DNA of 63,549 nt, counting the filler, from Sluysia triapertura (Eukaryota), in assembly GCA_046118255.1 (NCBI GenBank). It is 5 parts of 5 records of this genome, joined end to end, with 100 filler letters (N's around TTAATTAATTAA, not from the genome) between each part and the next. Parts side by side here need not be neighbours in the genome. Positions count along the whole stretch, not along the records: positions 27,320 to 39,142 come from JBJNIA010167259.1; 4 more parts are not named here. One strand, 5' to 3'. Below, piece by piece: positions 9,790-60,806 of the stretch. Below the pieces are notes generated by a model that had not been told where the DNA came from, made no database searches, and worked only from the letters and a program-made list of their open reading frames with translations. A program made the translations under genes and the position numbers. Each line of letters begins with the position of its first letter. Position 1 is the first letter of the stretch.

Positions 9790-10245
9790 ATAAAACTCTC
9801 TCACATAAATCATTAGAACATCTTTAAGAATTAAAGAGACAAGAACAGCTGTGACAATTGCATGGTACGGCCTGCCTAACTTTATAAAACACAAAAAATT
9901 GATTAATGATCAACAACCGTCATTTTATTTTACTCTTACTCTATGCTAGACTTCATGAAATTGATTGACCGGAGATCGAACCAGGAACCTCTACCTGCGT
10001 AGTTTGATGCTCTACCATTGAGCTATCAACCCCATCTAACAAATTTATTTTATTAAAGTCAAATTTACCAAATGGCATTTTAGGCCTTTTACCCCCAACA
10101 TCTATCTATCTTTACTTAACTCACTACTCACATTAAAAAATAAATTGTCAACACGCGTAAAAATAATTAATTTAAGTTTACTTTTTAGATTTTAATTGAT
10201 TTTCATTTTTTTCACACCAAATTTTCTAATGGAAAGTGTTTAAGC
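9790..10245 (-). mobile_element. Repeat family A fragment interrupted by a ~160-bp insert
   Basis: Colinear with 56136-56445 and 59415-59680 on both sides of 9945-10105. Confidence 0.75.
9961..10032 (-). tRNA. tRNA pseudogene or tRNA-derived element (ACG at the anticodon position, anticodon stem broken)
   Basis: Minus strand reads GGGTTGA TA GCTC AATGGTA GAGC A TCAAA CTACGCA GGTAG AGGTT CCTGG TTCGATC TCCGG TCAATCA. A and B boxes and the D stem are intact, acceptor stem 6/7, T stem 4/5, anticodon stem unpaired. Confidence 0.75.
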
Positions 10246-13200
10246 TTCCATGGAACATATATGTTTGTAAATAAATTATAAGAAAAAAATTGATGCTTTA
10301 TAAATAATTAATTTTGTATTATTTTGTTAAATTTATTTATTTGTAAATAAAATTAAAAAATCAATATTTTATAAATGTAAAGGTAAAAGTAAAAATTATT
10401 GTAAAGGTAAAAAATAAATGGTAAAAATTATTCTGTCGATAAAAATTAATGTATTTTATTTAAAATACATTTTCATATAAAAATATATAATAATTAAATT
10501 ACATTGAAATTACTATTGAAATATTATAAAAAATAAAATTATTAAAAAACAAATAATAACAATATTATTATTATTTAAAACATTTAAAACTAAATATTAT
10601 TGTTTGTAATAATGATTGTTTACGGATAATCATAGCAACATAAAAACTATAAATACAGTGGGATTTTGTAAAATAGTCACAACAAAAAACTACAGCTCAT
10701 ATTTGTTATATTTGGAAGAAAGTTATACTTTATTGTTTTCTGATTACAACTTGAGAAAATTAGGAGAAAGCCATATTTTATTCATAAATCTAATCATTAG
10801 TTTTATATTAACTAATCATTAGTTTTAAAATAAATTTAATTAATTACATAAATTATACTTAATTTTAAATTACAATTTGGTAAATATTTGGTAAATAAAT
10901 AAACTTTGTTCATAAAATTGTGATAATTAAATATTAATTATAAAATTAATATTACTAAATATTGTTTGAACGAACCTTTAACATTTTATGTGATATTTTA
11001 TTACTAAATTTAATATAATTTTGTGTATTTGATACTGTACAAGTACATTCGATTATTAAAAATTTTATTTGTAATTTGTATGTAAATATTGATTTCACAT
11101 TTTCTAAAGTTATACAATTGAATTGATAGTTTTTTATCTAAAGTACGAATTAACATTTTATATCCAAAGTTTAATTGATTTAAATTTTATTATTGAATTT
11201 AATATTTTGTGTTTTTTAATAAATAATTTATAACATTCCTTGTGTCTTTTAATAAATAATAATCATTTAAATATTTTTATTCGGATAATTTTTGAATAAA
11301 ATAATAATTAAATTAACACTTTGTATCTTTTAAATAGTGATTATATCTATTCTTTAAATTATAATAAATTCTTCATTAAGAAAATTCAATTACAAAAAGT
11401 GTTTCGAACTAGGTATCACGTAGAATCAATAATTTATATACATATATACCTCCAGTGTTACTTTTTTTATTGACGCTGCAAATCTATGTGTTGGCACTTG
11501 AGTGAGTAAAACCAGTATCATAAAGAATTCACAATAAGAATAAGGAAACTAATCCAAAACAATTTTATCTTATATCCGTCTTTAATCTTAATCTTCACAT
11601 AAATAATTAATTTTGTAAAATTTTGTTTGTAAATAAAAAATTTAATTTGTTTATAAATAAATTGTAAAGAAAAAATATTTTATAAATAGTCAATTTTGAA
11701 AAAAAATTTAATTTAAAAGTTAGTAATTACTTTTTGATTCTATGTTGATATAAAAAGTTTTGACAATATTTTTTATATTTACTTTACGGTGATATGAAAA
11801 AACTTTAGTAATTTTTATATTTATTTTATGATCATAAAGGTTATAAAAATTGTTTCATGAAATAATTGTTTCATGTGCGTTGAAATTATTAAAGAGCACG
11901 CACAAAAGTTTTATAAATCTTTCAAAATATATATTTGTTTGGAAGAAGATTGTTGAAATTAATTTGGGACGTTGAATTATTGTGTAACTTTGGGATTGTG
12001 GAAATAGACCTTTTTATTGGAAGGAGATTTTGTCAGATTGGACATCTATTTAATTGGAAAGGAGATTCTTTGGAATAAATTCTTATTAAATTGATCACTT
12101 AAGTTAATAATTAATAAGTGTGCTCCAATAATTTTAGTAATAATATACAACGTAAAATCTTTATATATTCAAAACCAAGTATCAAACCTGGTTCAGTTTA
12201 AACTAAAATTAAAATCCAAATAAAGATCATCTCTTTATTTTTAATCTGTACATCATATAAATTTGTAATTTTTATTCTTTAACCTGTGTATGTTATATAT
12301 TATATTTATTTAATAAAATTTTGTTTTTCATGTTATATTTTTTCGAGAATCTTGAGGATTAAATTTAAAAAATTTTGAAAGTTAAGAAAGAAAATAAACT
12401 AGAAAGAAAATTTAAGTGAATAGAGATATATAACATTAAAGAATACACGTAAAAGATAATTTAAAAAGATATTTAACTGCAGCATAGTGACCCTCTAATA
12501 GAGAATTCATTTTAAGAAAAACTTTAATTTTTATATTCAAAAATATATTCTTTTTTAATCTGTAATTGCGTCCTCGTTCAGATGTTGGGATTAGTGAAGG
12601 GTAAAGGTAGATATAAAGGTTTAAGACTCAGGATAACATAATAAGGTGAACGTTATTGAGGAATTGAGATAGAGGATTCTGACGAATTGTAACGGTAAGA
12701 TAAATATATAAGATACTTGAATTAAGACAAAACAATGAGAAATACGAAGAAATAACCCATGACAAGGTTTTATTTGTTAAAATACTAAGGTACATTTGTT
12801 AATTAACTTAATTAAAATTTATTTAATTTAATAAATTATTAGAGATGTTTACTCATGATATAAAAATGTTAAATTTAGTGTATACTCTTGATTTTTATTA
12901 TTGGTTTTAATGATGAAGTGTTACGAAGCACGTCCACGCAGATAACGTAAAATTAGTTATTTTAATTAATTTTGTAATTTAAAATTAAAGATTAAATACG
13001 TTCAAATGTCTGAGAATTAATAAAGTATATATCAGATTAAAGCTTGTAAAGAAACAAGGGAGTACACGCTATTGAGATTGACGTGTGACATACCGTTAAC
13101 ATGTTACGTATGATATAAAATATTGTTATTAAAAGAAATTTTATATTAGATTATAAATATGGGTAAATTAGGATGATGCATTTTCATATTTGTTTGTATA

Positions 13201-15151: not shown

Positions 15152-15251
15152 NNNNNNNNNNNNNNNNNNNNNNNNNNNNNNNNNNNNNNNNNNNNTTAAT
15201 TAATTAANNNNNNNNNNNNNNNNNNNNNNNNNNNNNNNNNNNNNNNNNNNN
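15152..15251. other. Assembly gap with artificial six-frame-stop linker
   Basis: N run containing TTAATTAATTAA. The same structure occurs at 27220-27319, 39143-39242 and 52061-52160. Confidence 0.95.
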
Positions 15252-16927: not shown

Positions 16928-17581
16928 GTAGGCATTAACAAAATAAATAATTTTAGTTTTATATTTATAAACAATAGATAAAAATATATAAAGAAATAAA
17001 CGATAAAGACATTCGTATAACTACCGAAACATGAAAATAGTGAAGTTATCAAGAATATATACCAAGGTACAAGTTTCAGAGTTTCTCTGACAATTAATAT
17101 GTAAACTGCTTTTTGCCATTATGCAGATAAATTTTTTATAATTATATAATTATTATTATAATTATATAAAAAATTAAGCTTAAAACGTATGTTAAAATAA
17201 TTAAACATGTACAAAAAAGAAAAATTCCAATAAAGTCTAGTTACTAAGCATCACATTATCATATTTCAAAAAATTCAATTGTACTGTGACTATCAATATT
17301 GACATGTCCATGTCAATAATTATCAGTAATTTAATCGTCATAGTGATTTATAATAGTAATAATAATTATTATTTTTATTATATTTTTATTTTTTTATAAC
17401 ATCACCACATTATGTTAATAATAATTCATATCCGTTGTTATGCATGTAAAATATTTTGTGATGGAGATTATTCTATTTATATTGTATAATATAATATGGC
17501 GTAATATTATAACCGTCCTATTTAAAATGTGACTTCATTTATCTTCTCATGATACTTGGATTCAAGAAAAGCATGATTTTG

Positions 17582-18130
17582 TAATAATAATAAATTAATT
17601 TATATTACAATCATATATACTGCAAAATAAGTACTCAAAAGCACTTAAAATGAATCATTCACTATAATATTTCTGAAACAGAAAAGCTTTGCCTTTTTCT
17701 TAAATATTTCATAATATTCCAATAATTTGACATTCTTTGGTAGCTGGTTTTGTATTTTTGAAATATAAATGTTATATAACCTATCATCTAGCTTATTATC
17801 ACTGTGAATTATACGCAGATTATTATATCTCAATGAAATATTCATCTTGGTTTCCAAGTTTTTTATTATTTCTAAGAGATATTCAGGACTTCCGTAATGT
17901 AAGCACTTGTAAATTAATGTCATGATTTTGACTTCTATTCTTGATTTTATTGGCACCCAATAGAATTCCTTAAGATAAGGTAATTGAAAAGCAAATAACA
18001 AAAGTGCGAGTTTTAATAAATAACAATTAATTCAATGATCTCTTAGAAGAAAATTAAATCAATTATGAATAGTCTATCTGCGAAATGATTGTGTACTTTT
18101 ATTTTGAAAAACTTTATATTTTAAACCTTA
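17582..18130 (-). mobile_element. L2/CR1-group LINE 3' remnant (ORF2 C-terminus and tail)
   Basis: ORF 17645-18001 LKEFYWVPIKSRIEVKIMTLIYKCLHYGSPEYL...NQLP...FKKKAK fits the L2 ORF2 C-terminal pattern LHWLPVxxRIxFKIxxLxYKCLxGxAPxYL...WNxLP...FKxxLK. It has a (TTA)n tail and a second copy at 50417-50752. Confidence 0.85.
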
Positions 18131-23866: not shown

Positions 23867-24120
23867 GCGTGTGTATTCAATCTCTTTCAAACCAAATAAT
23901 GAATAATCACAATTATTCACAATTAATGAATAATCATTCAATCNNNNNNNNNNNNNNNNNNNNNNNNNNNNNNNNNNNNNNNNNNNNNNNNNNNNNNNNN
24001 NNNNNNNNNNNNNNNNNNNNNNNNNNNNNNNNNNNNNNNNNNNGCGTGTGTATTCAATCTCTTTCAAACCAAATAATGAATAATCACAATTATTCACAAT
24101 TAATGAATAATCATTCAATC
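23867..24120. other. Gap (23944-24043) flanked by an identical 77-bp duplication
   Basis: 23867-23943 equals 24044-24120, typical of an unmerged contig overlap. Confidence 0.85.
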
Positions 24121-27108: not shown

Positions 27109-27394
27109 AATAATAATTTATTATTGTAGGGAACTCGTCATCCGGTAATCATCATAATTCATCACACAACATACACTATAACTCATCTCATAAAGTTCAA
27201 CATAACTCATCATTTAAAANNNNNNNNNNNNNNNNNNNNNNNNNNNNNNNNNNNNNNNNNNNNTTAATTAATTAANNNNNNNNNNNNNNNNNNNNNNNNN
27301 NNNNNNNNNNNNNNNNNNNTCTAACTTTGAACTTTTTAGTATACAGGTAATTAATTAATTATATATGTACAATGAAAAACACAAAAAATTTTTT

Positions 27395-27463: not shown

Positions 27464-29663
27464 CATATAAGTCATCTAATAAGACTTTGACATGGTCGTA
27501 AATTTTTAAGGTTATAAAACATAAGTTCACTCATACATTACTGAAGTATTTCTTTTTGAATAACCAAAAAGGTCTTTTTAGTATAGTGTTCCGTACTTTA
27601 GTAGTATAATTGAGATTAAAACAATGGATTTTTAAAGTTATAACGTGACTTATTTTATAAAATTAAATGAAATAAAAAGTACGAAATATGCTACACGCAA
27701 AAACTGAATAATTTAGCATAAAAGACGCAGAGTACGACAATAATTAAGTAAACGAGTTTGTATAACACAAAATAATAATAGCACAATATTAAGATTACAA
27801 TGGACATAAATGTCGAAAGTAATTAAATTCGATTGTGGTGGTCCAGCCCACAACTATGTACACATCACATAAATCACACCAATCAATTACACAAACCTCA
27901 TCACAAAAATTACATTATAACAAGTTTTGCCCATACCATTCAAAACACCACATCACCCATCGTTACGAAATTACAGATGCCTAATAAAATTTATTTTATT
28001 AGACACAAAGCTCGTTGTCATCCGGTCATCATTATTACGCAGTATTTTAATAATGGATTCAATCAAACAAATAGTTTCTACAGGACTTGGAATTTTATTT
28101 TCATCTAATTTACCAACGGTATTTTAAAAATGTGTATTTCGAAGCAATAGTTCTCCCTTTAGATATACTGAATCTAAATCTTTACGCCACCCATATTTTT
28201 AAAACATTTTGAGAATAAATTTAATAATTCAATACTATTATTGGATATTTAATAATTTCCTGTCTCAGTGCATCAATACTTACTACCTCATATATCAAAT
28301 CAAACTTTGTATTAACAATTCTTAAAATGTGCTTTGGATTTTAAATAGGAAACATTAAATAAATATTGCAATCAAGAGGTTAATTTAAAAAACAATATTA
28401 TTTATATTTTTGCATTTATCAAAATTTAAGTATTTATCTAAATTGTGTAACTGAATCTATTTTCTGTTTAATAAAATATGCTTTTGTGATATTTTATTTC
28501 ATTATTTTAATTCAAAAAAGCCACACACTTATGTTTCTTATGTTTCACAACCATTTCCAATTTGGCAATTCAATTTAACTTTTTTAAGAAAGTGATCAAA
28601 TATTTTAAATTAAAAACTAATTACAATGTTAATTTATCATAATTATACAATTATAACTATATATTCAATAAATAACACAAATATTTTATGTAAAAGCTAA
28701 GTAATCATAAAAAATTTGATTTACGATATTTTAAATGTCATTTTAATCATTTTATGGTGAAAAAAACACTAAAAGATTTAAATATATTTGTGAATATAAC
28801 TAGTGGCACATTTTGCTGACTTTTGTTGTATGCAATTAACTTAAAACTATTTGTTAGTTCTATTAATGTGAATATATGGACTGACAAATTATTCAGATAT
28901 TAATTTCATTATAAAAATTCTTGATAGATTGATTTATGTAAAAAATATGATAATAATATAATAGTGCACAGTCATGCAAAAAAAGATTTTACTTTATTTG
29001 GAGGTTTTTATTTTTCATATGCATAAAGATTATTGTTGGAATATAAGTAATTAAGTAAATAATTTGTTTGTTATGAATGGTTTTAATTTGTTGAATACGT
29101 TATTTTAAACTAAATAATGAAGTATACTGAGGTTTTAGTTCTTATAAAAAATTAGAAAAGTAAAGAAAAAGCAACTTAAAAACCATGAAAATAAACTACA
29201 AATTGGTTACTTTTATTTCAAATACTAAAATTACATCTAAGTACATATTTCAAAACCAACATTACTCGCAAGTAATTTGAAACATTAAAATTAAAAAATT
29301 AAAATTAATAAATGAATTGTTGTATTTTGTAATATCAAGTAAAATTTATTATTATAAGATACAATTATTTATTTAGATTTTAATCTGTGTGAATTCCTTA
29401 CGACATTGGCTAATACGTAAGTGACGTATATGATAATTATTTGGAGATTTTTTTATATCTTAAAGTGCCAAAAGACTAGTTATAGAACTATTGCTATAAT
29501 GTCAGAGATTCAGTTTCTGTCTTATTGCAATGAGAGGTTAAAATTATGTATTATACGTCGGATCCCATTTAAAACGGATCTCCGAAAATGAAATTTTAAT
29601 GTTAAACTATGAAAACAAAAAGGATTTTTGGGGCATTTTATAATGTCAAGTGTCTAAAAATAG

Positions 29664-29951
29664 ATTTTAAGATTTAAAAGTACAAATTAAGTATTGATTT
29701 AATAATTTTGTCTAAAAATAATTAATATTTAGTAAAATAATTTAGTAATATTTAATATATTATTGATTTTTCTAAAAAATAATTTAACAGACCTAATTAT
29801 TATTGGTATTATTATTGTTACTTTTATTATTATTATTTTATTATTGTTATTTTTATTATTAAAATCATTATCAATATTTTTATTTTTAAATTATTATCAA
29901 TATTATTTCTAAAATTCTTTTCTTTTAATAAATCAAATTTTATTCGGACAT
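29664..29951 (+). repeat. Direct repeat, copy 1 (copy 2 at 33898-34111)
   Basis: High identity by eye from TTTTAAGATTTAAAAGTACAAATTAA to TTTTATTCGGWCAT. Copy 1 has extra internal AT-rich sequence. Confidence 0.9.
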
Positions 29952-30620
29952 CATAATCATTCTTCAATTATCGATATTTCAAATGTACTAAAACCATTTA
30001 AAATATTACCAATAATTTTCGAGATGTCTTTGAAACTGGATATATAAGTTTAAATAAAGGAGACAAACTTAACATTAAAAACAATGAAAAAATAATTTAT
30101 AATGTAAGAACAGCTGGAAATGTATTGATGGATGGTGCTTGTGAAAGAGGTTCAATAGAATGCGAAGGGAAAATATATGACAACGTAGTAGCTCAAGAAA
30201 CATACGTATTAAGTTTAAGATCTTTTAATGAAAGTTTTGACTTAGAAAAAGGTACAATGATATCACGTCCATTTTGTAAAAGTACCAAACAAGTTGCGAT
30301 ACTGGTGAATCTATATTAATATACGAATTAGAAAAATTTCAATGCCAACTAATATTTTTGATACAATTTTAATTTAATTTCCGGATTTATGCACCAAAAT
30401 GAACTAGCTGTAGAAGATAATTTAGACATACCAGAAAGAAAAAGATTAAACGAAGTGGAAACCTCAACAATTTTAATGGCTACTAAAGAAGAAGATGGAT
30501 TGATATTAGTATCAAAAAAGTTGGTAATTAGATGCGTACAGGAAATCATAGAGACAAATTATCAAGGAATCTATTTATCTGAAAAAACAATTATGCAAGC
30601 AAGGAAAGGTATAGACAAAA
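29943..30620 (+). pseudogene. Chuvirus/herpes-gB-like fusion glycoprotein (env-like) remnant, frameshifted
   Basis: Joining frames at ~30010, ~30290 and ~30368 gives FGHHNHSSII...FRDVFETG...RTAGNVLMDGAC...GKIYDNVVAQ...LRSF...FCKSTxxSCDTG...C...IRCVQEIIETNYQGIYLSE. This is colinear with the recalled chuvirus-type G pattern CGMHSHxS...CxxxHxTG...TLAGxVxxDGxC...GxWDNVVVQ...C....C...CGxxxxxTEHPxLFIxE. Confidence 0.75.
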
Positions 30621-30773
30621 AATTTAAAACTATCTTTTCGAATTTTTACTTAGCTTTGTACATTAATTAGGGACAAATTTTATTAAATTTATATTGAAAT
30701 AATTCATAAAACTTTATTTACTAAGTATACGTTTACTTTCTTCTATCTTATTTTTCATTCATATTTTTAGATA

Positions 30774-31076
30774 ATGTATTACATCAAATGTTCAATATGT
30801 CAAAAATTAATTCACAAACATTATATAAAAACATTTTCATGAATGCATAAATTCCATTTCAAATGAATTATAAACCTTTTTCATTTTACACTAACTAAAC
30901 ACATGAATTGTCCATTGTGTAGAACAATGATAAAAGAAATACAGGTATTTTATAGGAGAAAATTCCGTCATTCATATGTACTCGAAAAAATTTCATCAAA
31001 TGTTAATATAGAAAATATTCAGGTACAAGAAATAGAAATTATTCAACCTACCTATCTTAAACAATTTAATAAATAG
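30774..31076 (+). pseudogene. RING-H2 finger protein with two in-frame TGA codons at Cys ligand positions
   Basis: MYYIKCSICQKLIHKHYIKTFS*MHKFHFK*IINLFHFTLTKHMNCPLCRTMIKEIQVF...* fits C-x2-C-x13-[TGA]-x-H-x2-H-x2-[TGA]-x14-C-x2-C. The TGA codons are at 30840 and 30864. Confidence 0.8.
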
Positions 31077-31594
31077 GAAATAATCATACCTAAGACAAAT
31101 TTCCCTCCTGGTCTGACGCGTTCTCAAAAACACCACTGTCGCAGAGACAATTGAGACGTTGGTATAAAAAGATAGGATTATATAAAAATAATTTAAGAAT
31201 TAAAAATAACCATTTCTTAAAAAATGTACTTAATATTTCATTTGCATTTTTTATTTTTGTGCTTCCTAATTAGTAATTAAATTAGTAATTAAATAAATAT
31301 AAAATCAAACTAGCGATTAAACTATCTAAATTTGTATCTGCTACTTTTTACTAAATATGTTCATTTATTTAGATGTCATCAACTTCCTTTCCACACGCAT
31401 ACATCACAAATAATATCCCTTCTTTATACAACGACATAGACCGCTTTGTGGCAAAAATGATACCCATTGTGTATTTTCAAAATCAAATCTTACCCCTAAT
31501 ATTTTGAAAAATGAATTGGATCACAATTGTATAACTCATTTATTTCAAATCTGTGAGAAAAGTAAAGCAAATAGAATAAAAACTTAACTTAAAC

Positions 31595-31640
31595 TGAGTT
31601 CACCAAGGTAATGGGCTTACCAGTTAGGGCCGGCCGTTGG
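31595..31640 (+). repeat. GC-rich dispersed motif B (putative retroposon 3' end)
   Basis: TGAGTTCACCAA.GTA.TG.GCTTACC.GTTAGGGCC is shared with 48134-48180. Related versions lie at 60749 (+) and 61757 (-). Confidence 0.75.
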
Positions 31641-32689
31641 ATTTATAAATCAAATAAGTCTCAAAAATATGCTAACAGAGCCTTAATTCTTAATCCTATC
31701 TGGAGGTAAACTTTATTAATGACTATTGTAGTGCTAAGATCCTCTAATAATTGTCAAATTGAGGTTTTCTGTTATTAAAAATATAAGTAGGTTTGAAAGT
31801 TATGCGTCATAATATTTAAAAGAATTTCTAGAAAACTTTGATTTTTAAAATATAAATGAAAATTGAAATTTATTTAGTAATTTTACGTAGATTCCATTAT
31901 ATGATGATTTTCCGTGGCTAGAAGTAAATTCTAGCGGTTGAAAACATGGAGCAAAACGAGAGATTTTATAGTTAAATCTATGTAATTTACAATAATAAAA
32001 GTCAAAAGATTTTCTTAATTTATTCTAAAAATTACGTTACTATAATTCACTGATAATAAAAATTATAGATTTTCGCAAATTATCTGTTTAAGTTAATTTC
32101 TTGCTAATAAATTTTAAGAAACAATAATTTAGGTACAGATCTAAGAAAAGATCCAATAATTATATACAAAAATTTAAGTTGATTTTACCTTTGATACTTT
32201 ACAGTATCTCCCTTAAAAATAATTAAACTAACGTAAAATGTAGATTCACAATGATTAAAGAATATTAAAAAAACTACTGGAGTCGTAGCCAGAATTTCGA
32301 AGTCTGTTGCAAAAAATTGTGCAAATGTTGTGAAAATGTTACTTATTTATATAGTTTTAATCTGACCTTCATCGGATTAAAACAAAATAATTAAAATAGT
32401 TATTAACATTTTACGCTAACTTGATTATAAATAATTAAAATAATTATAGTTAAATAATTATAGGCAGTTAAATAATTAAAATTAAATAATTAAAATTACT
32501 TACATTGGAACAAAAATTAGAACAAAAATTTCTAAATTAGAAGCAATAAAAATTTTAATAATGATCAATTAACGTATACAAAATTAATCAATAAATCAAT
32601 TAAATGTTTTATGCACAAAATTTCGCTGCACACAAAATTAATTTTTTAATGTTCAAATTCAACCCCCATTAATTATAAACACTTTACAG

Positions 32690-33240
32690 GGATACCCCAA
32701 ATACAATAGTCAGGTATTTCTTGCCGCGGCTAGGATTTCGCTTAAAATATTAATATTTGTAAATAAAGTCCCACTACATTCGCGTATTCAAGGATACTCT
32801 TCTTTAGTCATAACTAATTTAGCACAAAATTGTGAAGTACGCATAGAATCGGAAGGGCTGCCTACTTTTTTTAAATATTGAAAAGCCAGTAGATCTGCCT
32901 AAACATTCTGTATTGTATACTGATGATAAGGATAGTTCACCCATACACCACACTTATCTCTGTTGGAAAAAATTATACTAGTTTTTGTTGCAGTCAGTTG
33001 GCACTAGATTTTAAAGAAGGTTATCAACCAATAAGGGTTTGCCTAATGCCGTATCACAAACTCTTCCATTCTGATGAGTTGTTAAGGCTCCGTATAAGAA
33101 TTAGAAATTTTTTAGTAACAGAACACGGATTAAGTGAAAACGATCTTCTAATGCGAAGGTTATAGCTGATGTTCGTCAATATTGGCTTACGTCACTATGT
33201 GGCATTCTTCCCTGATATAATTATTAAGGGGAATCATCAA
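32690..33240 (+). pseudogene. Decayed coding-like segment, unknown product
   Basis: GC above the flanks, with broken frames including the 80-aa ORF 32923-33165. No family recognised. Confidence 0.3.
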
Positions 33241-33626
33241 CCTTACTTATACAAATTTAGTATCACATGAATCATTAAATCCTATATTAAGGGCACCGAA
33301 GGTTTTTAAATTATTATATCCCTTCCCACCGCGTGTTTCGTGTTTGCAGCACGCCAAAGACTTAATTTCATTATTTGATTTAATTCCTTTTTGCCACAAA
33401 TTGATAATTCAAAATTTATTCCTCCTTTAATTTTGCCTGCTTCTCTTGCTTCTTCTTCTTCCTCTTTTTCTCTATTCCATCTACCTCTTCTGACAAAAAC
33501 TCAATCTGCACAGAATTTCCTCACTTTGTTAAGCCTATACCTTTTTCACCTCCTCACAAACATCATAAAAGTGATACATTAAATAATAACACAAATACAA
33601 TCAAAGAAAATCCACACATTCACAAC

Positions 33627-33876
33627 ATGAAGACAGAACAAAAAACGACAAAATCTACCAAAACTGAGAGAAAATAATCAACAAAACCACCGGAGAAAGT
33701 TGCGATCACCAAGAAGCAGAAAATGGATTCGCCAAACGTTGATCTAGACGACACTGTCGATGACGATGTCGGTGTTTTGGGAAAAAAACTTAAATGATAA
33801 TGAATTTTTTGGTTGTGATGACGATATCCCAGTCATCACTTTATTAGATGATGATTTTACTTTTGATTTTGATTGA
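33627..33876 (+). pseudogene. Decayed small basic/acidic protein
   Basis: MKTEQKTTKSTKTERK*STKPPEKVAITKKQKMDSPNVDLDDTVDDDVGVLGK, then a frameshift in an A-run, then LNDNEFFGCDDDIPVITLLDDDFTFDFD*. Confidence 0.45.
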
Positions 33877-33897
33877 GATAGTAATAATACCAATTAT

Positions 33898-34111
33898 TTT
33901 TAAGATTTAAAAGTACAAATTAAATATTGATTTAATAATTTTATTGATTTTTCTAAAAATAATTTAATTGACCTAATTATTATTGGTATTATTATTATTT
34001 TAATGTTATTTTTATTATTAAAATCATTATCAATATTTATATTATTAAAATTATTATCAATATTATTTCTAAAATTCTTTTCTTTTAATAAATCAACTTT
34101 TATTCGGTCAT
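33898..34111 (+). repeat. Direct repeat, copy 2
   Basis: Matches 29664-29951. Confidence 0.9.
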
Positions 34112-35937
34112 GGTCAAATTAATAAATACATAAATAAACGTGAAATATTCACAAAAGCACACAATAAAAGTCACAATAAAAAAGTTTCTGTACAGAAGTC
34201 ATCGCAGTTTTTCGTTAAACGTTATTTTACTCCGCTCATCCAACAAGGTTCAATATTTGAATTTCAATTCAGGTGTTCGACTTCTTCGAAAAATCAATCA
34301 ACTCACAGATTACAATATCTTTGATAGGATTTTATTCTGCTTTTAATCGTTAGTTTAAATTATATAGGTTTTATAATCACATTGAATTAAAAGTAATTTT
34401 GCACTTAATTATTTTTATACCCCTTTTAAGAGGTGTGGAAACAGTTAATAAAATAAATATCAAAGATTATATATTAATCTGATTAAAATCATTATTACTT
34501 GTGCTATCATACTTTTTATAAATTTAATAATATTTCCTTTTAAAATTTTTTTGTTGAGTTCTTATTTACTGCTAAAATAAGGTGGCCGATCAAGAGATTT
34601 GAAATAAGGTTGAAAAGTACCACTTAAAATAACATTTTAAATTGAATTTAACTGTAATTTAAGCACTTTTCCAAATAACATTCGATAACTTCTTAAAAGA
34701 ACTAAGAATAGTATCGCACAAATCACGACAAATCTTGCCAAAAATATAATTTAATCTAACATAAACCTATTTATACCTCCATATAAGATCTTCTAAATTA
34801 CTGCATACAACTTAGCCCTTAAGTGAATAAGACTAAGATTGTAAGGGACACATAGTATAAATAAATAAAACAATTCAAGTATAACACTAGCAATAATCCT
34901 TTATAATCTTTATAACAGTTTAATGTTTTAATTAATTATGAAAACACAATTTGAATAATTTGTATTAGGATAAAAAATATAAGAAGCTTACAAAACTTTG
35001 TTATATAATAAATATATAAATGTTACAAAAATTAAATACTAGTGGTAATTAATTTTTCTTAATATAAAGTTTTTGAAATTAATTTTGTTTCAACCGTTTA
35101 AACGGTTGAATAAAAAAATTAAATAAAAGAATTCGAGTAAGATTTTAGGTCAACAACAAAATGGTTGCGAAAATTTAAATTAACTGACTAACTGATTATT
35201 CTTTTGTAAAAATGTTGTCAATTTTGAATCGATACGGTTGTTCTCTACACTATGAGAATTTGTATAATGTCCAGATTTTTGTTACGGCCAAAGTAAAATT
35301 TTTATGTGTGATTTTGTTAAGAATTTGTTGATTGACTATCGTGAATTTTATATTCCTAGTTATTGTTGAGAAATATTATGTGAAATGTTATATATTTATA
35401 CTTAATTCTTAAGGCCAAGTATGACAAAATTTAAAAAGTTTTTTATCAATTATATACAATTTTACAAATTATTTATTAAAAATATTCCTTTTAAATAATC
35501 TGTTAATCAAATTAAACTAAAATTAAATTATTATTAATAAATTAATGTTATTGATTATTATTAATTAATGTTAAAATAAAATTATACACATAATTAAGAA
35601 ATATTTCTTTCAATAAAGGTTATACAATTAATCAAAAGTTAGATTATTCATAAAATAGTTATTTATAAATTACACAAGTTGACTTTAGTTCACAAAAATT
35701 ACAAACTTTTGACGTTATACACTTTTATTGTTTAGTGTTATAAGCTATATGTTAGGTTAAATTATATAAAAAAAACTAATTAAATACAAAGTAACAAATT
35801 ATTATAATATTACCTTTAAACAACTAACACTGATTTTTATTAACTAAACCATATTAACAAAATTATGAAATGGAAATGTGTTTTCGTGATTTTTGTGCAT
35901 TTATATATATTTTAATTAATAAAATAGTTTATTTAAT

Positions 35938-38133: not shown

Positions 38134-40829
38134 GTATTAGTATTAGTATAATTTGATATCATTGAATGCACAATTAGTGTTACTATAACTAAAATATATG
38201 TTACTTTTATAAACATATTTTATTTTTAAATAATTTATCATAATATGTTAATCTCTGGTTAAAATATGTACAATTATCAATAAAATATCCCATCAAATAT
38301 CAATAAAATATTACAATTTATAAAAAAAAGTTATTATAAATGTAATTTAAAAATAACACATTGTTTAGTAGAAATAAATTGTTTATATTTTTTTCAAAAA
38401 AATTAATTAATATTTTAAATAAAAATAATTTTTCAGAAATTTAATTATGAAACAATGTGATTTATTTTCATAGAGATTTTTATAAGTATTTTGAGATTTT
38501 TTAAACTTTATAACCCCTTACAGGACTATATGTTTATTAGATCTTAGAAGGGTTAACTTAACAATAATTTTGCAATTAAATACAAATATAGAATTAACAA
38601 ATGTTAAAATATATTTATTAATTAAGAAAATTAATTATTTCTTATTACTTCTTGCAATGTGTAAATTTAAAATTTTATTAACTTTAAAATTTTCCGAATT
38701 AAAGAACGTTCTCTAATTTTTATGTTTTAATAAGTTACTTTTCATTATTAATTTTTCATTATTTTTCATTAATTTTTCATTATTATTAATTTCATTATTT
38801 TTAATTATTAAGTCATTATTAATTTTGATTTTTAATATTTCAATTACTTTTTATTATAAAAAATTAGAAAAATAATTTGAACTAATTACATATTAAATAA
38901 AAACTCAAAAATTAATACTTAGTTATTTTGTCTTATTCTTTTTACTATATAAATTATAAAGATTTTTTAAAAACAAATTTTTAATATTAATTATTGATTA
39001 TTGTAATTATTTATGTTTTTCTTCTTTTTCTTCTAATAATATTAATAATAATATTATTATTATTTTAGTCTAGGTCCTATTTATAGATTTTATTTCATTT
39101 GCTATTTTATCCACTTTATAATAATGCAATTTCTTTCTGATTNNNNNNNNNNNNNNNNNNNNNNNNNNNNNNNNNNNNNNNNNNNNTTAATTAATTAANN
39201 NNNNNNNNNNNNNNNNNNNNNNNNNNNNNNNNNNNNNNNNNNTTGATTAAATCGTTGTAGTTTTTTTGTTTAAAATAAATTTGAAAAAAAACGCTCATGA
39301 ATTATTCCTCAACCCAATACATTTATTACTTGATTATTGATTTTTTAAATATATATGACAAATTATTAAAAATATTATTACTATAAAATGATATTTGTAA
39401 TAGCATTTATGTTATGAAAAATCAATTAAAGGTGTAACAAACTGTAAACTGTAACAAATTGTGTGTAATGAAGTATAAAATTGATAAGTTTTTATTAAAT
39501 TTCGAAATAATATTAAATTAAGTAAAAAATCAAATAATATGTGTACGTCTTTATGTATAAATTGTTGTTGAGGTTAGTTTCAAAATTTACAATTATAAAC
39601 ATAAATTGATTACTTGTTTTGTAATAATTTAATAAATATATAATTCAGTAATTCATACTATAAAATAAATAAATAATAAAATGTTAAAGTGATTGAATTT
39701 TAATATTATGAATGCGTGTAATTATATCCACAACAGATCGCCACTCTAAATTATTAGCAGTTATTTTTTAGTGTACTAAAAATTAAAATGTAATAAATAA
39801 AAATTTTACATATGATTCTCATTGTATTAGTTAAGTAAAGCAAACAAGTTACTCAAAAGAGTAATATAGTTTTATTTAGTGTTTAAGATTATATGGTACT
39901 TAAAAAATTGAAATTTTATTTATGTATTACTTATAATCTTAAGTACATATTTTGATAAAATTAAAATCCGTATTAGTAAAAATACAAACACGAACTAAAT
40001 AGATTTATTAATACCAATTATATTAATTATCTCCAAACTAATTTTGCGAGAAAATATGTAAACACAATGTCAAGCGTTGTAAATATGTCAGCATAATAAA
40101 GTTCAAAATACTGCGAGTTCCACGAAAAGTAATCGGTTAATAAACACTTTAAAATCAGTATATTGTTTGGTTGCGAGATGTTCAGTGAAGTCTGAAGACT
40201 TTGGCTATTGTATAATTTATTTATTTATATTAATATTATTCAGTGGCTAGCTCTTTTTTTCTCGAGGTTCGTATGAACTACTATTACAGCAATGTGTCAC
40301 TGCGACTGACATAAAAACAAAATAATGTTAATTATGTCCAGAAGAAGTCAGCCAATCACAATTATTTTAAATATTATCAACTTTTGAACATAATTATTAA
40401 CACAAGCCAATCATAATTATTTTAAACACTTAAACACCATCAATTTTGAACATTATTAACAATACATTATTGATTTTTGAATTATTAACATTTTGAATTT
40501 TATTATTAGTTTTATTATTAACATTATTAATTAGAAATTTTATTGTTTTCATTGGAAATTTTATTATAGTTAGTTTTAATATTATTAACTTTTAATTATT
40601 ATTAACTTTTAGTTATTCGATAATTTTTGTTTAAAAAATTAAAATTTTAATTTAACTTTGTTTAAATATTAACCTTCAAGGTTAATTCGTGAGAGTATAA
40701 ATAGTAATAATAAATTTCACAGAAACACAAAAATTTTTTTACATATTTTCTGAACCAATTTTTTGGAAGGGCTAAATTTTGAAAAAACTTTCGCGAACTA
40801 ATCTGTGTACGTTAGTGTAGTGGCCAACA

Positions 40830-41500: not shown

Positions 41501-42280
41501 TACTATGAAACAATAAGACAACTTAAGTTTAACATATCACTTTACTGTCGTTTTAAGTAACAACAACCGCTTTTACTTTTCTTTCTATTTTAAATATGTG
41601 AGAAAGTAAAGAACATAAAAGAAAAGATAGTGTAACTTGATCAAGACGAGATTTATGCGTTTTATTTTAATAATAGTAATATTAATCACAGTGTTGTTGT
41701 TATTATTACTATTATTATCATTATTTTTATTATTATTATTATCACCATTTTATTATTATATTTTCCATCTAAACTGACAAATCATACAGTAACTACCACT
41801 ATCAGTGGTTATTGAATTAAAATTCATATCAAATCAGTGTCACCACTCATAGTGGTTTACATATCAAATATCTTGCATATCTTGTAAATTTAGTATTGTG
41901 TTAGGTCTCTTTTATAACGTGTCTGGTTGGATGTTCATTTATTGCACACCCTATATTTCAATCTTGTTATCTAATAAAATTGATTTTAAAAATAGAAAAC
42001 TTAGAATCAATTGGACGACCAATGATATCTCCCTGAAGAGTCAAGCAGACAAAATTAGAGTTACAGCGAAGATTAATAAAAAGTATAATACCTAAAAGTA
42101 TACCAACGTTCAAGACAAACAAAAAAAGAGGATTATATCTTAAATACAAAAGCAGGACGATATCAGATATCATTAACATCTTCTGTTTCGTCATACAAAT
42201 AGTGTTAATAGTATTGTTAATTTTAATCTAACAAGAGCTTTTCATCTAAACGGACTCATTCTCAGTAATTAATCGATATA

Positions 42281-43111
42281 ATGATAATGATGATTATTTC
42301 AATAAAAGACCGTAATACGAGTAATACTGTACGTATTACTCGGAGACATTGCTCATCAAAGAATTTTACAGATTTGTTAAATGCGTATATAAAATATATT
42401 CATAATCCAATTGACGATCCGTATTTGTCTGATACATTACAAGACTTGATTAATTCTATTAATTTAACAAATTGTGATGTAAACAATATCGGTTTCCTAC
42501 TCATTATTTCTCTAACGACGTCGCAACTAGAAAGAGTTGAACAAAGAATAAATAGTATCAATAAAGAACAACCACCATGTGATTATCTTTCCTTTCTTCA
42601 ATCAATCTATGACATTTATATGAATTTATCATTAGAAAATATGATAGATGTAGAATCGGTCTATAAGCCACATTTTCAAGTTACATGCTTCATCAAAGTT
42701 GATAATGATGTTTTTCCAATAAATCAGCGATGCATCGATATAATTAATGATAAGTTACTGAAAACGCAAAATATTCAACTTATGATTAGTAAATTACAAG
42801 TTCATCTGGTAGCAATTAGGAATATTCGATCAAAACGGTCGTTTCCCTGCAATATTTATAATGAATCATTATTCTTTGTAAGATGTTCCGAACATGATTT
42901 TAACCATAGCGAAGTAGTTAACGTGTATGACGATTATCATGAAAGAAACCTAAAACAACGTGAAATAGAACAATATCTTCGTTTTATTAACTCGCAACAG
43001 AACAAATCATTGATGAATGGACCAATACATGTAGAACATTTAGAGCTAGTTGTCATAACCTTTTATAAGATCGAGTCAATCAGTGTGAATTATAAATTTA
43101 TACATATGTGA
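42281..43111 (+). CDS. Intronless 276-aa hypothetical protein
   Basis: Longest ORF in the window. An open ATG-to-TGA frame of this length is very unlikely by chance at this AT content. No motif recognised. Confidence 0.7.
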   Translation: MIMMIISIKDRNTSNTVRITRRHCSSKNFTDLLNAYIKYIHNPIDDPYLSDTLQDLINSINLTNCDVNNIGFLLIISLTTSQLERVEQRINSINKEQPPCDYLSFLQSIYDIYMNLSLENMIDVESVYKPHFQVTCFIKVDNDVFPINQRCIDIINDKLLKTQNIQLMISKLQVHLVAIRNIRSKRSFPCNIYNESLFFVRCSEHDFNHSEVVNVYDDYHERNLKQREIEQYLRFINSQQNKSLMNGPIHVEHLELVVITFYKIESISVNYKFIHM

Positions 43112-48133: not shown

Positions 48134-48180
48134 GTGAGTTCACCAACGTACTGAGCTTACCGGTTAGGGCCAGTCAATGG
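48134..48180 (+). repeat. GC-rich dispersed motif B
   Basis: Near-copy of 31595-31640. Confidence 0.75.
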
Positions 48181-48299
48181 ATTTTCTATCAAAAATTTAA
48201 GGTAAATGGAGGTGATAATTAAATGTAATACTTTGGGAAGAGCTTTTAATATTTTTAATTTCTTATTAATACGAAAAACTGAAATTCTATTTTAATTGT

Positions 48300-50177: not shown

Positions 50178-50416
50178 TTAAAGACTTAATTATAATCAAA
50201 ATTTGTTTAATATATGTTTTATTGTTTTACTTATATTTCTTTAGTAAGATTTATTAAGATAATTAATCTATATCTAATAGTCAAATATATAGTCAACTTA
50301 ACTGCATCAAATAAAGTTTATATGAATAACAAAAAGCCATATTTACAATTGACAAACAGTGGATATTTTATAACAAAAAATTGAAAACGTATGCTTAGTC
50401 GAGATTGCCCAAGCGG

Positions 50417-50752
50417 TAATAATAATATATTAATTTATATTGCGCTCACAACTACTACAAAGTAAGTACTCAAAGGCGCTTAAGGTAAATCATTCACCAT
50501 AATATTTCTGAAATAGAAAGAACTTTGGCTTTTTCTTAAATATTTCATAATATTCCAGTAATTGACATTCTTTGGTAACTGGTTGTATATTTTGAGACAT
50601 AAACGGCATACAACCTATCACCTGAATAGATTATCATGCCTCAATGAGATATTCATCTTGGTTTCCAATTTTTGTTTTATTTCTAAGATATTCAGGACTT
50701 CTGTAATGTAAGCACTTGTAAATATTTGTCATAATTTTGAATTCTATTCTTG
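50417..50752 (-). mobile_element. L2-type LINE 3' end
   Basis: Homologous to 17582-17942. The minus strand ends AAGCGCCTTTGAG...GAGCGCAATATAAAT...(TTA)n, the L2-like 3' stem-loop and tail. Confidence 0.85.
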
Positions 50753-51023
50753 TAGTTAAAAAGGTAAATTTGAAAGTCACTTTGTTTGATAAAATTTGGA
50801 AGGGCTGGTTCAGTTTGGATTATCATTTAATCAACTCAGGTCTAACTTATAGAAAGTTTTGGGCCCATCTAATAATTAAAGGCGAAATTTTTTCTGTTGA
50901 TTTTTTAATTAGTAAGTGCCATTATTTGTTAAATACAAATTTAAATCTAGTATATTTGATGTTTTACAATTTTAAGATAAATCATTTCCATTTTATAGTA
51001 TGTTGATTTACGAAATTATGTAG

Positions 51024-51304
51024 GACTTATTGATATCAATATACTGGCGACTGGAATTTCAGGTGGTATTCGGAAGAAACGGGAAGAGTTGGCAGCCGTC
51101 ATTTGGGATATGGTAACTGGGATGAATACCAAACGCGGATTTGCAGACTCAGGTTCTAAGACATTACAGTATCAACATGTTTTGGATGAGGTCCGTAAAA
51201 CTACTGATAGAATGATATCGCGCGAATTATTCGAAGATGCGTTAAACGTATTAAAAATGGAAGGTAAGGTGGAATGGGCCGGAAAAATTATCCGCTTTAA
51301 ATAA
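51024..51304 (+). CDS. MCM4: DNA replication licensing factor MCM4, terminal exon (winged-helix C-terminus; partial gene)
   Basis: A TAG acceptor precedes (G)LIDINILATGISGGIRKKREELAAVI...TLQYQHVLDEVR...MISRELFEDALNVLKMEGKVEWAGKIIRFK*. This matches the MCM4 C-terminus [24 protein letters not shown]...LKYQQLFEDIR...ITKDMFEEALRAL. Confidence 0.9.
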
Positions 51305-52060: not shown

Positions 52061-52849
52061 NNNNNNNNNNNNNNNNNNNNNNNNNNNNNNNNNNNNNNNN
52101 NNNNTTAATTAATTAANNNNNNNNNNNNNNNNNNNNNNNNNNNNNNNNNNNNNNNNNNNNCTATAATTACAATGTATAAAATCCAATATTAATTCGTATC
52201 ATCCAGCCAAAATTAATAATGAGTCAATTAAGTATAATATTCCAAAAAAATAACTAAAACTATATATTAATTTATAATTGAAACTAAACACGATTGCTGT
52301 TATTTAATGAACATTTATTTAATATCATTACGAGCTTTTAATTTAGAAATATTCTCATTTCAATGTTATTTACATTGAGTTTTTTAATTGAGAACAATAT
52401 TATAAAAATACATTTTATACAATGTAGTTTTGTTAAGTATTAATTAACGTTATATGAATTTATATGAATATTAACTTATCCAGGGAAATTTTTCTTACGA
52501 ATTGACTTTAAATGGCATTGAATTTTTTAACTCCGAAAAAATAGTTCAATACACACCGAGCTCGAAAGCAAGGTATGATAAGACGTTCATGGTAACTAGC
52601 ATGTTAATAACGCATTATACTTAATAAGTGTTACACTGTGTTTTCGAAAATATCACTTTTAATTTATTTAGTTTCAACAAAATATGTGAGAATTCAGATT
52701 ATATGTTCTTCATCACACACCGTCTTCAATGTATTAATATTAATCATCAAAAAATCATTTTAATATGATTTTTGAAAGTCTAATTGAAACAGAAATTATT
52801 TTGATAATATATATTAATTTCTAATAAAAATACAAATTATTTAAAGATG

Positions 52850-53994: not shown

Positions 53995-55044
53995 TTAATT
54001 GATTGTGATATTGTGAATTGATTGGATGATGAGAGAGTATAAAATATAGATTTCAACCGTGACAATAATGATGATAGATCTGAACATCCATGCTTAGGTT
54101 AAGGTCTTTAATTTTATTTATTTATTTATTATTAAAATAAAATAAACAACTAGTTTTATTTTAAAAATATTAAATTTGTTAATATTAAAGTTTTTATTTT
54201 TTAAATTGATATTATTATGTAAAAGAATCATGAAAATAAAGACATTTATAATAATTATAACAGCTAAAGAATACTTTGACATTCCAAAGAACTATATAAG
54301 TTGTTGAGATCTTTTGGAGGTTGAAATGTACCCAAAAACCTTTGAAGGTATTAGAACACCTTTGAGATTTTTAATTTTGAGACCATCTAAGACTCTATTA
54401 ACCTTTATGTATTCTGGAAACATTGATAAGCATAAAAGATCTTCGAGTAATATTATAAAGTGTATAAAATCTTTAAAATGTTTGAAATTAGTGGGAGACC
54501 TCATTCGCTATTTTATTTTAAAGTATTAAATTTATTATTTTTATAAAGGAGTTTTATCATTATTTAGAGGGAGACTCCCTTCGTTATTTTATTCTAAAAT
54601 ATTAAATTTATTTTTGATTTTAAGTAATTGTATTATCACTTTACAATTGTTCTTTTAAAATATAATAGTTATCCAACATTAATATTTTAAACTTCCTGTA
54701 TATTGATATTCTTAGTCTGTTGCGTTACTCATGGTTGTTTTATTTTAAAGAATTTGTAATATCCTGGTTATTATTGTAAACGCTATTTTTATTTTTGTCA
54801 TTTTAATAATGACTCATATTAATAATAATAATTTTTTTTCGATTTTTATTTAATAGTACATTATTGTTTTAGTTTCGATTTGATTTTCAAGCACCTTAAA
54901 TTTGGTATAATAGTTATCGATATTATAAAAGAAGATTACGGCAAAATTATACTTGATACACTGACTCTTGAAATTATTAAGGTTTAAGCTGATCAAGTTA
55001 ATAATATTGAGTTGTAATAACAAACAAATTTTAAAGACGCAACA
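53995..55044 (+). mobile_element. Repeat family A, rearranged copy ending AAAGACGCAACA
   Basis: Segments match the reverse complement of 55981-56140, 56935-57190 and 55116-55442. Confidence 0.8.
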
Positions 55045-55115
55045 ATAATGCAAATATTATCAAATAAACGATAATAAAAATAATGCTGGAAAACAATTTT
55101 CGCTATAAGTATTAT

Positions 55116-57308
55116 TGTTGCGTCTTTCAAATTTATTATTTATTATAGCTCAATCTGATCTCGTTTAGCTTAAAATAGTCTTAATAATTTCAGTAGTAAG
55201 TATATCAAATATAATTTTGTCGTAATCTTCTTTTATAATATTAATAATAATTATACCAAATTTAAGTTCTTGAAAATCAAATCAAAACTAAGACAATGAT
55301 TATTAAACAAAAAATCGTAATATAATTTATTACCAATAAGAATCTTTACTAAATACTGAGAACAACTAAACGACAAAAAATAACAAAATCAAACAACCAC
55401 AAAACAACCAGGAGTGACGCCACAGACATTAACAATATCAAAGTCTATAAAATTAATAGTAATTATGTTATTTAAATATTTTGTGGTCAACGTAACAAAG
55501 AATGATGACCATTATAATGAAATTCCTTGATAATAATACCTTTCTATTAAAAACTTATCAATAATGTCTGAAGGTAAAATACTCAGTTCTCTGATATAAT
55601 AAATTGAGTAAAGTGTTTCTCTTCAATTCACCTTAAAAATAACTGAAAATCAAATATGATTTAAATATAATCCTCAACAAAAATTACGTAAACTGTTTCT
55701 CAATTAATAAATAAAAATGAAATATAGTCTTAACAAAAATTGCGTAAGGAGTCTCTTATTAATCCTCCTTAAAACAGCTGAAAAGCAAATACAATTTAAA
55801 TATAATATTCAACAAAAACTACGTGAAATTTTTCTCACTTAATTATCTTAAAAATAGTTTTTTAACAAAAATTGCAAAAGGAGTTTCTTATCAACTCACC
55901 TTACAAGTAGACTAAAAAATTAACTAAAAGTGACACAATATTAAAATTATTCAAATTGAAATGAGATCAATCACTTATATTATTTTAATAAAATAATAAA
56001 TAAATAAATAAAAATTAAAAACTTTACCCTATACATGGATTTTCATATATATCATCATCATTGTCATTATTGTAAAAATTTTGAAATCTTTATTTTATAC
56101 TCTCTCATCATCCAATCAATTCACAATCTCACAACCAAACACTCTGTCACACAAATAATCCTAACCTTTTTGAGAATCAGACCGCCAATAACAACTTTGA
56201 TAACTACATGTTACGGTCTGTCACACTTAATTAAGTAGAAAACATAGAAATCTTATTTATTATCAACCATCATTTTCTTTTACTCTACTCAATTTATTTT
56301 TACTTAAATTACATCTCACATTAAAATAACAATAAACAATATTAACATACATAAAAAATAATGAATTTAGAATTTCACTTTTTAGAATTTAATTAGTTTT
56401 CGATTTTTCACACCCAATTTTCTAATGAAAAATGTTTTCAGGTTCTTATTCTCAAACGAACCATTCTACAAACATTTCAATCTCACTTCTCTTTCATAGA
56501 TTCATTATATTTGCATCACTCTAAGTATAAAAATTTGACATTCAATAATTAAAAAGTAATTAAAATTTGACTTTGCTCAATATTAAGACTTTCTTTGCAC
56601 GAACTCGGTCCAACCATACCTTCATTGAAAGGTCTTTTCAAAACAAATACATACGCAGTTTCAAATTCAACATAGCATTCCGCATTCAAAAGTTATTCAC
56701 GAAAAACATACTTTTTCTTAATTAAGTCAATTAAGATTTTTAATTAATTAATATATTTTCAGACTTAATCTTATTCTACGTTTAAAGGTTTTATTGATAT
56801 TTTAAAATTATTTAGTAGTTTATAAGGCATTCAGGAGGCTCTAGATGTTTTCACCTTCACCTCTCTGATTCATTTGCCTTGTTCTTCATGTTAATTATTA
56901 CCATATTATTTTAAATAACGATTTTATTTCTCAATCATTTTAAAGATTTTATACACTTTATAATATTACTCGAAGATATTTGATGATTATCAATGTTTTC
57001 AGAATACTTAAAGGTTAATAGAGTCTTAGATGATCTCAAAATTAACAAGTTGAAAGGTAATCTAATGACATCAAAGGTTTTCCAAGTCACTTTCAAGCTT
57101 TCACAAGGTCTCAACACCTTATATAGGTTTTGGGAATGTCAAGGTATTCTTTATCTGTTAAAATTATTATAAGTGTTTTTTTATCATGGTTCGAATTTCA
57201 ACAATGTTTATAATGTTCAATCCATCAATTTGTATAAGTTCTTCATTTATTTTATGATTTTATATGCTTCTTACTCATCTTCTAATCTAGAGTTTGGCAA
57301 TCTCAACA
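55116..57308 (-). mobile_element. Repeat family A, longest copy (~2.2 kb)
   Basis: Both termini are present (TGTTGAGATTGCC... and ...AAAGACGCAACA on the minus strand). Internal ~135-bp tandem units at 55600-55910. No long ORF. Confidence 0.8.
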
Positions 57309-57319
57309 ATATTATGATG

Positions 57320-57660
57320 AACTTTAATGAGGTTCAATGACCTATATAAGTGTTTGAAACCTCACGGAAGCTTGAGATGGACTTGAAAAACCTTTCAAAG
57401 CATTAAATTACCTTTAAAATTGTACACTTACTCTTGGAACATCGATAAGCATTTGAGATTCTCTAGTAACCTTATAAAGTATTTAAAATTTTTATTATCG
57501 GTATTAAAGATAAATATTCGTAAAATTAATATAAGGAAGTAGAAAATGAATCAGAGAAAATAACTAGAGCCTCATGAAAGCCTTATAAACTACTAAATAA
57601 CTTTAGGTGCTTAATAAAAACCTTTAAGCTAAAATAAAATTAAGTCTAAAAATAGATTAA
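57320..57660 (+). mobile_element. Repeat family A internal fragment
   Basis: Matches 2520-2822 (CTAGAG.C.C.TGAA, AATAA.ATTAAGTCTAAAA). Confidence 0.65.
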
Positions 57661-57662
57661 TT

Positions 57663-59414: not shown

Positions 59415-59740
59415 ACAACACAAATCATCCAAACCTCTTTGAGAATCAGATCTACAATAACAACTTTGACAATTACATGGTACGATCTGTCAAACTTCAT
59501 TAGGTACCAAACATAGAAATTTGATTTATTATCAACCATCATTTCCTTTTACTCTACTCAATTTATTTTTTACTTAAATTACTTCTCATATTAAAATAAC
59601 AATCAACAATATTTTTAACATACATAAAAAATAATGAATTTAATTTCACTTTTTAGGATTTAATTAATTTTCGATTTTCCTCTTTCACAGCAATGATCTC
59701 ATATTCAATTCATTACATTTGATCATTTTAAGTATTGTCA
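59415..59740 (-). mobile_element. Repeat family A internal fragment
   Basis: Close match to 56148-56410 and 56490-56530. Confidence 0.8.
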
Positions 59741-60700: not shown

Positions 60701-60806
60701 TATATTGTGAGAATTTTGTTTTTTTATATTTATATTAATATATCTTACGTGAGTCCTCTAGGACACTGGGCTTACGCACTCAAGGGCCAGCACATAGATG
60801 TCAGCA
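60701..60806 (+). repeat. Motif B variant; left arm of an inverted pair
   Basis: GTGAGTCCTCTAGGACACTGGGCTTACGCACTCAAGGGCCAGCACATAGATG followed by AAATAAATAAA. Inverted homolog at 61702-61809. Confidence 0.8.

Follow-up and report, generated by a model that had tools for sequence, protein, structure and literature searches.

Retroelements with the gene order GAG-ENV-POL and a gB-type envelope gene (env) have been reported in Platyhelminthes, Nematoda and Bryozoa (PMC13524379). Burro elements, giant long terminal repeat (LTR) retrotransposons of planarians, exceed 30 kb, occur in thousands of copies, carry env in frame, flanked by BCL2 and protease domains, and encode ubiquitin- and apoptosis-related domains; decaying Burro fragments are described in Dugesia japonica (PMC6431247). 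Burro1 has a combined RING and BIR region (B-IAP), according to PMC13465017, which cites Lee et al. 2026. Here we analyse a region at positions 29664–34111 of a 63,549-nucleotide stretch of Sluysia triapertura DNA (the window; five records of assembly GCA_046118255.1 joined end to end), in the part taken from JBJNIA010167259.1. A first-pass annotation had read this region as a 4.4-kb cassette, enclosed by direct repeats, with a fusogen, a RING ligase and orphan genes on one strand, and possibly the relic of an integrated virus-like or non-autonomous element. We find an env fragment, a RING-H2-like pseudogene and decayed orphan frames, and consider the region probably what is left, after internal deletion and rearrangement, of a Burro-like envelope Ty3/gypsy retrotransposon with accessory genes. 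The relic of a virus-like mobile element is thus retained from the annotation, and the repeats as its defining limits are not.

A gB-type envelope fragment without gag or pol

The best-supported feature is an internal, frameshifted fragment of a gB-type envelope protein, about 240 amino acids long (29946–30667, plus strand), recovered by Pfam, phmmer, tblastn and profile searches. Positions 30002–30316 match Pfam family PF24664 (E = 2e-7, model positions 112–207 of 653), and the fragment scores 115 bits against an env profile, confirming the gB-like gene of the annotation. It is a middle piece, covering about 240 of roughly 600–650 residues. Homology begins at 29946, exactly where the left repeat ends (14.4 bits, a score that none of 100 control stretches attains), so the first repeat does truncate the glycoprotein, as had been noted. 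At the 3′ side the limit is firm to 30622 by profile and lies at 30667 by tblastn with 5 of 18 homologues; an extension to about 30720 is equalled by 1 of 100 controls. The frameshifts are located around 30286–30378. Sub-profiles found neither the N-terminal part with its signal peptide nor the C-terminal half with its membrane anchor, with 41 and 40 of 100 controls, respectively, scoring equal or better. The gB-type homology of the annotated fusogen holds and, judged from its sequence, what the window carries is a fragment and not a working fusogen.

The window contains no gag, reverse transcriptase (RT) or integrase (IN), in line with the annotation: whole-polyprotein profiles match env only, and tblastn of 18 homologues against the window gave no gag or pol, with a best non-env match at E = 0.089. 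When the read-through env frame was compared by phmmer with 1.84 billion representative proteins, 17 matches were returned, 16 carrying PF24664 and the remaining one being a spurious PPR protein. Half of these 16 also carry gag or pol domains (zinc-knuckle, protease or full pol), and 7 are pieces of 200–492 amino acids on short contigs. Wherever pol is present, in P0005, P0011, P0019 and two (L001 and L003) of three metagenome loci retrieved with alignment A3 (L001–L003), env lies 5′ of protease (PR), RT, RNase H (RH) and IN. The best match has a Bcl-2-like stretch just upstream of env, although this is weak (E = 0.00096, under the cut-off). Identity to the closest relatives is 24–29%. By homology, the fragment appears to belong to the Gag-Env-Pol Ty3/gypsy group (flatworm errantivirus or Burro-like), which upholds the earlier statement that the layout is not that of a chuvirus or BEL/Pao element.

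Set against the gB-type GAG-ENV-POL errantiviruses of Platyhelminthes group C1a, the locus shares the env family, and its nearest relatives have that gene order; by eye, the motif layout of the phmmer matches resembles that of six Schmidtea env rows shown in the same study (PMC13524379). It differs in having only the env fragment, followed directly by a RING-H2 sequence and orphan frames, without gag, pol, LTR ends or, as judged by eye, a primer site. The word 'RING' does not occur in the main text of that study (PMC13524379). Anakin (BEL/Pao) and jingchuviral glycoprotein endogenous viral elements (EVEs) are described with the same glycoprotein Pfam family, often as fragments near retrotransposon debris (PMC10084718); here, in contrast, the top matches are Gag-Env-Pol polyproteins with gypsy-order RT-RH-IN, and no BEL/Pao or chuvirus gene lies nearby. 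Troyka and Oikopleura Tor were rejected as matches, having no env or a different env in their descriptions (PMC12440569; PMC4402516).

Other searches gave no further relatives. A metagenome scan with the window's own env piece and a locus scan of prokaryote genomes gave no match, and neither did IMG/VR viral contigs scanned with the env piece, P0002 or alignment A3 (a word-limited, weak negative) or a word-index protein search with the env piece (also a weak negative). Three of the retrieved sequences have features of their own. P0005, a full env-pol polyprotein, is labelled as a Flavobacteriaceae metagenome-assembled genome and is probably eukaryotic contamination; L001 has accessory open reading frames (ORFs) 3′ of pol, among them one for a DEDD exonuclease (10617–12104); and L002 (61–3057) has a zinc knuckle and a ubiquitin-like stretch in Gag, ahead of env.

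The left repeat marks a break inside env

The repeat pair itself is real and far beyond chance. The AT-rich left repeat (29665–29947, 283 nt) and the right repeat (33898–34107, 210 nt) lie on the plus strand with a GC content of about 11%; their alignment has 209 aligned bases, 8 substitutions (3.8% divergence) and 75 gap columns, the left copy being 74 bases longer, and blastn of the window against itself, with dust, returns the pair at E = 2e-47. Apart from ATT-microsatellite noise, there is no third copy in the window.

To see how the region looks elsewhere in the genome, we used one public run that contains the stretch, hereafter the source run, because it is probably the source sample; it informs on same-genome copies and is not independent support. 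Contigs were compared at 80% likeness, and the readings below draw on, among others, 8 of the 7,462 pieces and 6 of the 1,733 loose ends. Summed contig depth is not a copy number, and repeats are partly skipped. On this scale, exact unique pieces have a depth of 12–20, whereas all internal parts of the region are repeated: env bins reach 42,000–82,000 and are uneven (1,185 at 30362, 226,841 at 30219), RING bins 520–1,494 and orphan bins about 340–720 (about 370–1,200 across the 3′ part of ORF-A). AT-rich joints with short sides (for example, 31303 to 32474 and 30379 to 32541) were treated as unreliable. Among the public runs listed, no RNA dataset contains the stretch.

In other copies, the place of the left repeat is taken by env. 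At least 8 contigs bear different, env-like sequence upstream of 29945 (judged by eye in comparison with the homologues), and the left repeat is therefore a break inside env. A few letters are common to the left repeat and the env-like sequence at this junction, which suggests microhomology. That the repeat might code for the env signal or anchor was rejected by comparing sub-profiles with controls. On the other side, at least 8 contigs cross 34111, with a differing letter there and up to 45 letters from the contig end, and the repeated DNA extends to roughly 35600 (bin depth is 200–860 up to 35623, with a single bin at 13,552, and falls to 82 thereafter); the right repeat, too, is therefore not an end. 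The repeats do not delimit the multi-copy unit, and the annotated cassette bounded by them is not supported; they are probably a by-product of rearrangement and not the ends of a new element. A further contig, in which 31310 is followed by repeat-like sequence, puts the repeat downstream of the RING in another copy.

The alternative closest to the first-pass view is a true non-autonomous family in which the repeats are eroded parts of LTRs and an env stump, RING and orphans were mobilised in trans. We regard it as unlikely, though it has several points in its favour: the repeats are direct, 3.8% diverged and 210–283 nt long, the internal parts lie at broadly similar intermediate depth, and non-autonomous derivatives that keep env are described, as for TelKA2n (PMC5408684). 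Large retrotransposon derivatives of this sort have lost pol and kept cargo between direct repeats (PMC6431247; PMC5408684), whereas the present repeats do not pass as LTRs, and the repeated unit is not confined between them. As the annotation had conceded, they lack TG..CA ends and a target site duplication (TSD): a scan of 17 × 17 boundary pairs returned a single chance 4-mer, with AG..TC ends, and no real TSD. By eye, the left repeat passes straight into env coding sequence, with no space for a primer site, and a purine run is absent ahead of the right repeat. Env sequence occupies the left-repeat position in other copies, and contigs continue beyond the right repeat. Lastly, LTRs should exceed the interior in depth, and the repeat bins lie below it (80 and 202, some repeat letters being skipped). 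The same values, set against 12–20 for unique DNA, led us to reject the repeat as a high-copy element, so the outcome that would have overturned the first-pass reading is not observed.

A RING-H2-like pseudogene probably linked to the envelope fragment

Downstream of env, at 30774–31200 on the plus strand (3′ end approximate), lies a RING-H2-like pseudogene with an N-terminal RING and a decayed tail, judged from ligand spacing, Pfam and the PDB. The annotated RING ligase gene needs qualifying: six ligand residues (of eight zinc ligands) are kept at C3H2C3 spacing, two in-frame stops inside the domain make it a pseudogene, and scores are weak (zf-RING_2 at a Pfam E of 0.021, below the cut-off; best PDB match the Arkadia RING-H2, E = 0.23). 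A Pfam scan detected no BIR domain beside it, and a word-index protein search with the RING found no relative (a weak negative).

One divergent contig of the source run, with 33 differences and 6 gaps (about 86–88% identity), reaches across 30631–30901 and so connects the end of env with the RING. At this divergence the env-RING junction is old, and the pairing was probably inherited within this genome; the env and RING genes thus probably belong together, as had been proposed. The same junction also speaks for the non-autonomous family considered above.

In a second alternative, slightly less probable still, an env fragment from a very abundant errantivirus came to lie next to an unrelated RING/orphan element of moderate repetition, and one segmental duplication then copied the two together. 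Such a pile-up would account for env bins about 30- to 150-fold deeper than RING bins, for the absence of the RING from related loci and for the nested insertions evident here (a 1.1-kb insert and abundant repeats at 29332–29617 and 34766–34849). Against it, env and RING share one orientation across a short spacer, the junction is old, and env depth drops to 1,185 at 30362, about the RING level, which fits a close subfamily inside a larger family.

Orphan frames and a later insertion

Beyond the RING, the region contains decayed orphan frames on the plus strand. ORF-A is split into a 5′ part (31373–31551; 31% GC) and a 3′ part (32654–33270; 35% GC) by a secondary insertion of 1.1 kb (31552–32653; 23% GC). 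Contig joints in other copies skip this insertion, running from 31551 to 32654 in at least 3 contigs (side 82) and from 31547 to 32670 in at least 1, and motif B, which the annotation had counted as part of the cassette, therefore sits within a later insertion. Motif B is nevertheless a real 60-nt DNA motif (31595–31654), with an 82% second copy at 48135–48193, and is very abundant in the source run (summed depth 92,557 at 31632); it is probably part of a short interspersed repeat. It has no Rfam or tRNA match (Rfam gave a single chance match and ARAGORN none), and its fold was no better than that of shuffles (z = −0.03 and 0.30).

ORF-B (33627–33876, plus strand; 35% GC) is a small basic/acidic decayed frame, and a divergent contig of the source run covers its surroundings (33543–33820). 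ORF-C (34110–34346, plus strand) is a decayed frame beyond the right repeat and so outside the annotated cassette; it and the 5′ part of ORF-A had been missed in the first pass. GC content is 29–35% in these frames (31373–31551, 32654–33270, 33627–33876 and 34110–34346), compared with 21–23% in the insert and downstream DNA. None of ORF-A, ORF-B or ORF-C has a Pfam match, and for the 3′ part of ORF-A neither Pfam, a comparison with L001–L003 nor a protein atlas, queried with the first open piece only, gave a usable match.

The frames listed in the first pass do lie on the plus strand; that all genes do is doubtful. The stretch 33271–33600 is pyrimidine-rich on the plus strand (purine fraction 0.37, compared with 0.58 for env and for the MCM4 exon described below), and its composition makes a minus-strand frame plausible. 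From strand bias and translation, a possible decayed, glutamate-rich frame lies at 33306–33563 (minus strand), as a lead only; it has no Pfam match.

Origin of the region

Because gag, pol and LTR ends were each looked for and not found, the region fits no intact errantivirus, Burro element or LTR element, though it is derived from that kind. Like Burro, it has best matches that place env between Bcl-2-like and protease domains, ubiquitin- and apoptosis-type cargo including a RING, great abundance and decayed fragments. It differs in being a relic of 4–6 kb as opposed to more than 30 kb, and in having a separate H2-type RING without a BIR.

If the region is a deleted and rearranged Burro-like relic, its history might have run as follows. 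An ancestral deletion would have taken out the whole of pol together with the latter half of env, bringing the 3′ accessory genes (RING-H2 and orphans) beside the env stump. At least one round of copying of this deleted form would have followed, through segmental duplication or with an intact helper acting in trans. AT-rich DNA originating in the downstream part of the element, which could be a piece of a long LTR or untranslated region or of a second tandem copy, would then have been joined to mid-env, probably by microhomology-guided deletion or template switch, creating the apparent direct repeat. Insertion of the motif-B-bearing repeat into ORF-A and neutral decay would have completed the present structure. 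Going by the protein families, env of the parent element would have let particles enter cells, and its RING protein would have been an E3 ligase with host proteins as substrates; the present copy performs neither role.

Several points weigh against this origin. In another copy, the link between env and RING is carried by one contig among 8 of the 7,462 pieces; its env side measures about 37 nt and lies in a part matched by tblastn and not by profile. The RING motif is absent from 19 homologous proteins and from ORFs of at least 100 amino acids in the 3 related loci, all of them incomplete and distant. Env depth far above RING depth would also be expected if the two were separate repeats. The Burro polyprotein order BCL2-env-PR and its BIR/RING/MATH cargo are absent from the window and seen partly, and only, in homologues P0002 and L002, and the H2-type RING without a BIR is unlike the B-IAP of Burro1. 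IAP RINGs are of the C3HC4 type. The env placement comes from matches at 24–29% identity and not from a tree against chuvirus, Anakin and Maverick; likewise, the likeness to Burro is one of description and not of sequence comparison, and a planarian host would be a guess from base composition and the env relatives.

A more specific version would make the region a pol-less derivative of a Burro-like errantivirus, combining the N-terminal half of gB, without an anchor, with a RING-H2 ligase of its own and 2–4 orphans, and spread by a helper to tens of copies. We hold this to be improbable, a little more so than the chance pile-up; were it true, the family would carry cargo much as a satellite does, with a soluble env stump and an E3 ligase acting on helper or host. 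Finally, it is very improbable that the region is endogenised DNA from a chuvirus-like RNA virus, from a BEL/Pao Anakin element or from a gB-bearing, Maverick-like DNA element with cargo. PF24664 is named for Monjiviricetes fusion proteins, a preprint reportedly describes Mavericks with a fusogen, and chuvirus glycoprotein EVEs are described as common in arthropods (PMC10084718), but every informative top match is a Gag-Env-Pol polyprotein, the word-limited IMG/VR scan gave no relative (weakly negative), and Pfam found no nucleoprotein, polymerase or capsid match in the frames scanned.

Surrounding sequence

The window is AT-rich throughout (14–32% GC per kb). Upstream of the region, a decayed frame at 27810–28250 (plus strand) is multi-copy in the source run (bins 1,900–4,800) and has no Pfam match; it was rejected as the missing env start, with no env match by tblastn, profiles or Pfam. 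The two abundant repeats at 29332–29617 and 34766–34849 adjoin the repeated block; at least 65 contigs diverge after 34849, so the copy at 34766–34849 is incomplete. Close to where the block stops downstream, a strong DNA hairpin (35079–35122; z = −3.6) could mark the terminus of this element or of a different one.

Farther away, an animal-like MCM4 3′ exon lies at 50999–51301 (plus strand; Pfam E = 3e-5, PDB E = 4e-8); a word-index protein search with this exon gave no match, a weak negative. An uninterrupted 280-amino-acid frame at 42269–43108 (plus strand) has no Pfam match, and its nearest atlas clusters are all SMAD MH2-domain proteins, at a score of 0.83 with low recognition; as a lead, it may be an intronless MH2-like gene. 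Dispersed repeat families of 80–680 nt, many inverted, occur at 2619–3327, 10101–10241 and 53999–63524, clustering at 54–62 kb, and a further pair links 17581–17943 with 50416–50752. The 100-nt gaps (15152–15251, 23944–24043, 27220–27319, 39143–39242 and 52061–52160), four of which have 12 called bases in the middle, all lie outside the cassette.

Implications for envelope-bearing retrotransposons

The combination of an envelope with a ubiquitin ligase is not new in kind, and finding a free-standing RING-H2 next to a truncated env varies it only modestly; our literature search found no description of a gypsy env element with accessory RING-H2 and orphan genes. As it stands, the region is transposon debris, useful mainly for what it points to: the source genome contains a very abundant gB-envelope Ty3/gypsy family, 24–29% identical to the nearest relatives found, and probably a subfamily with accessory RING-H2 and orphan genes. 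One Burro-like element with ubiquitin-pathway cargo is reported, second-hand, to aid stem-cell survival (PMC13465017). Intact members of the Sluysia family, if there are any, would broaden the range of ubiquitin-pathway cargo known from Burro-like elements.

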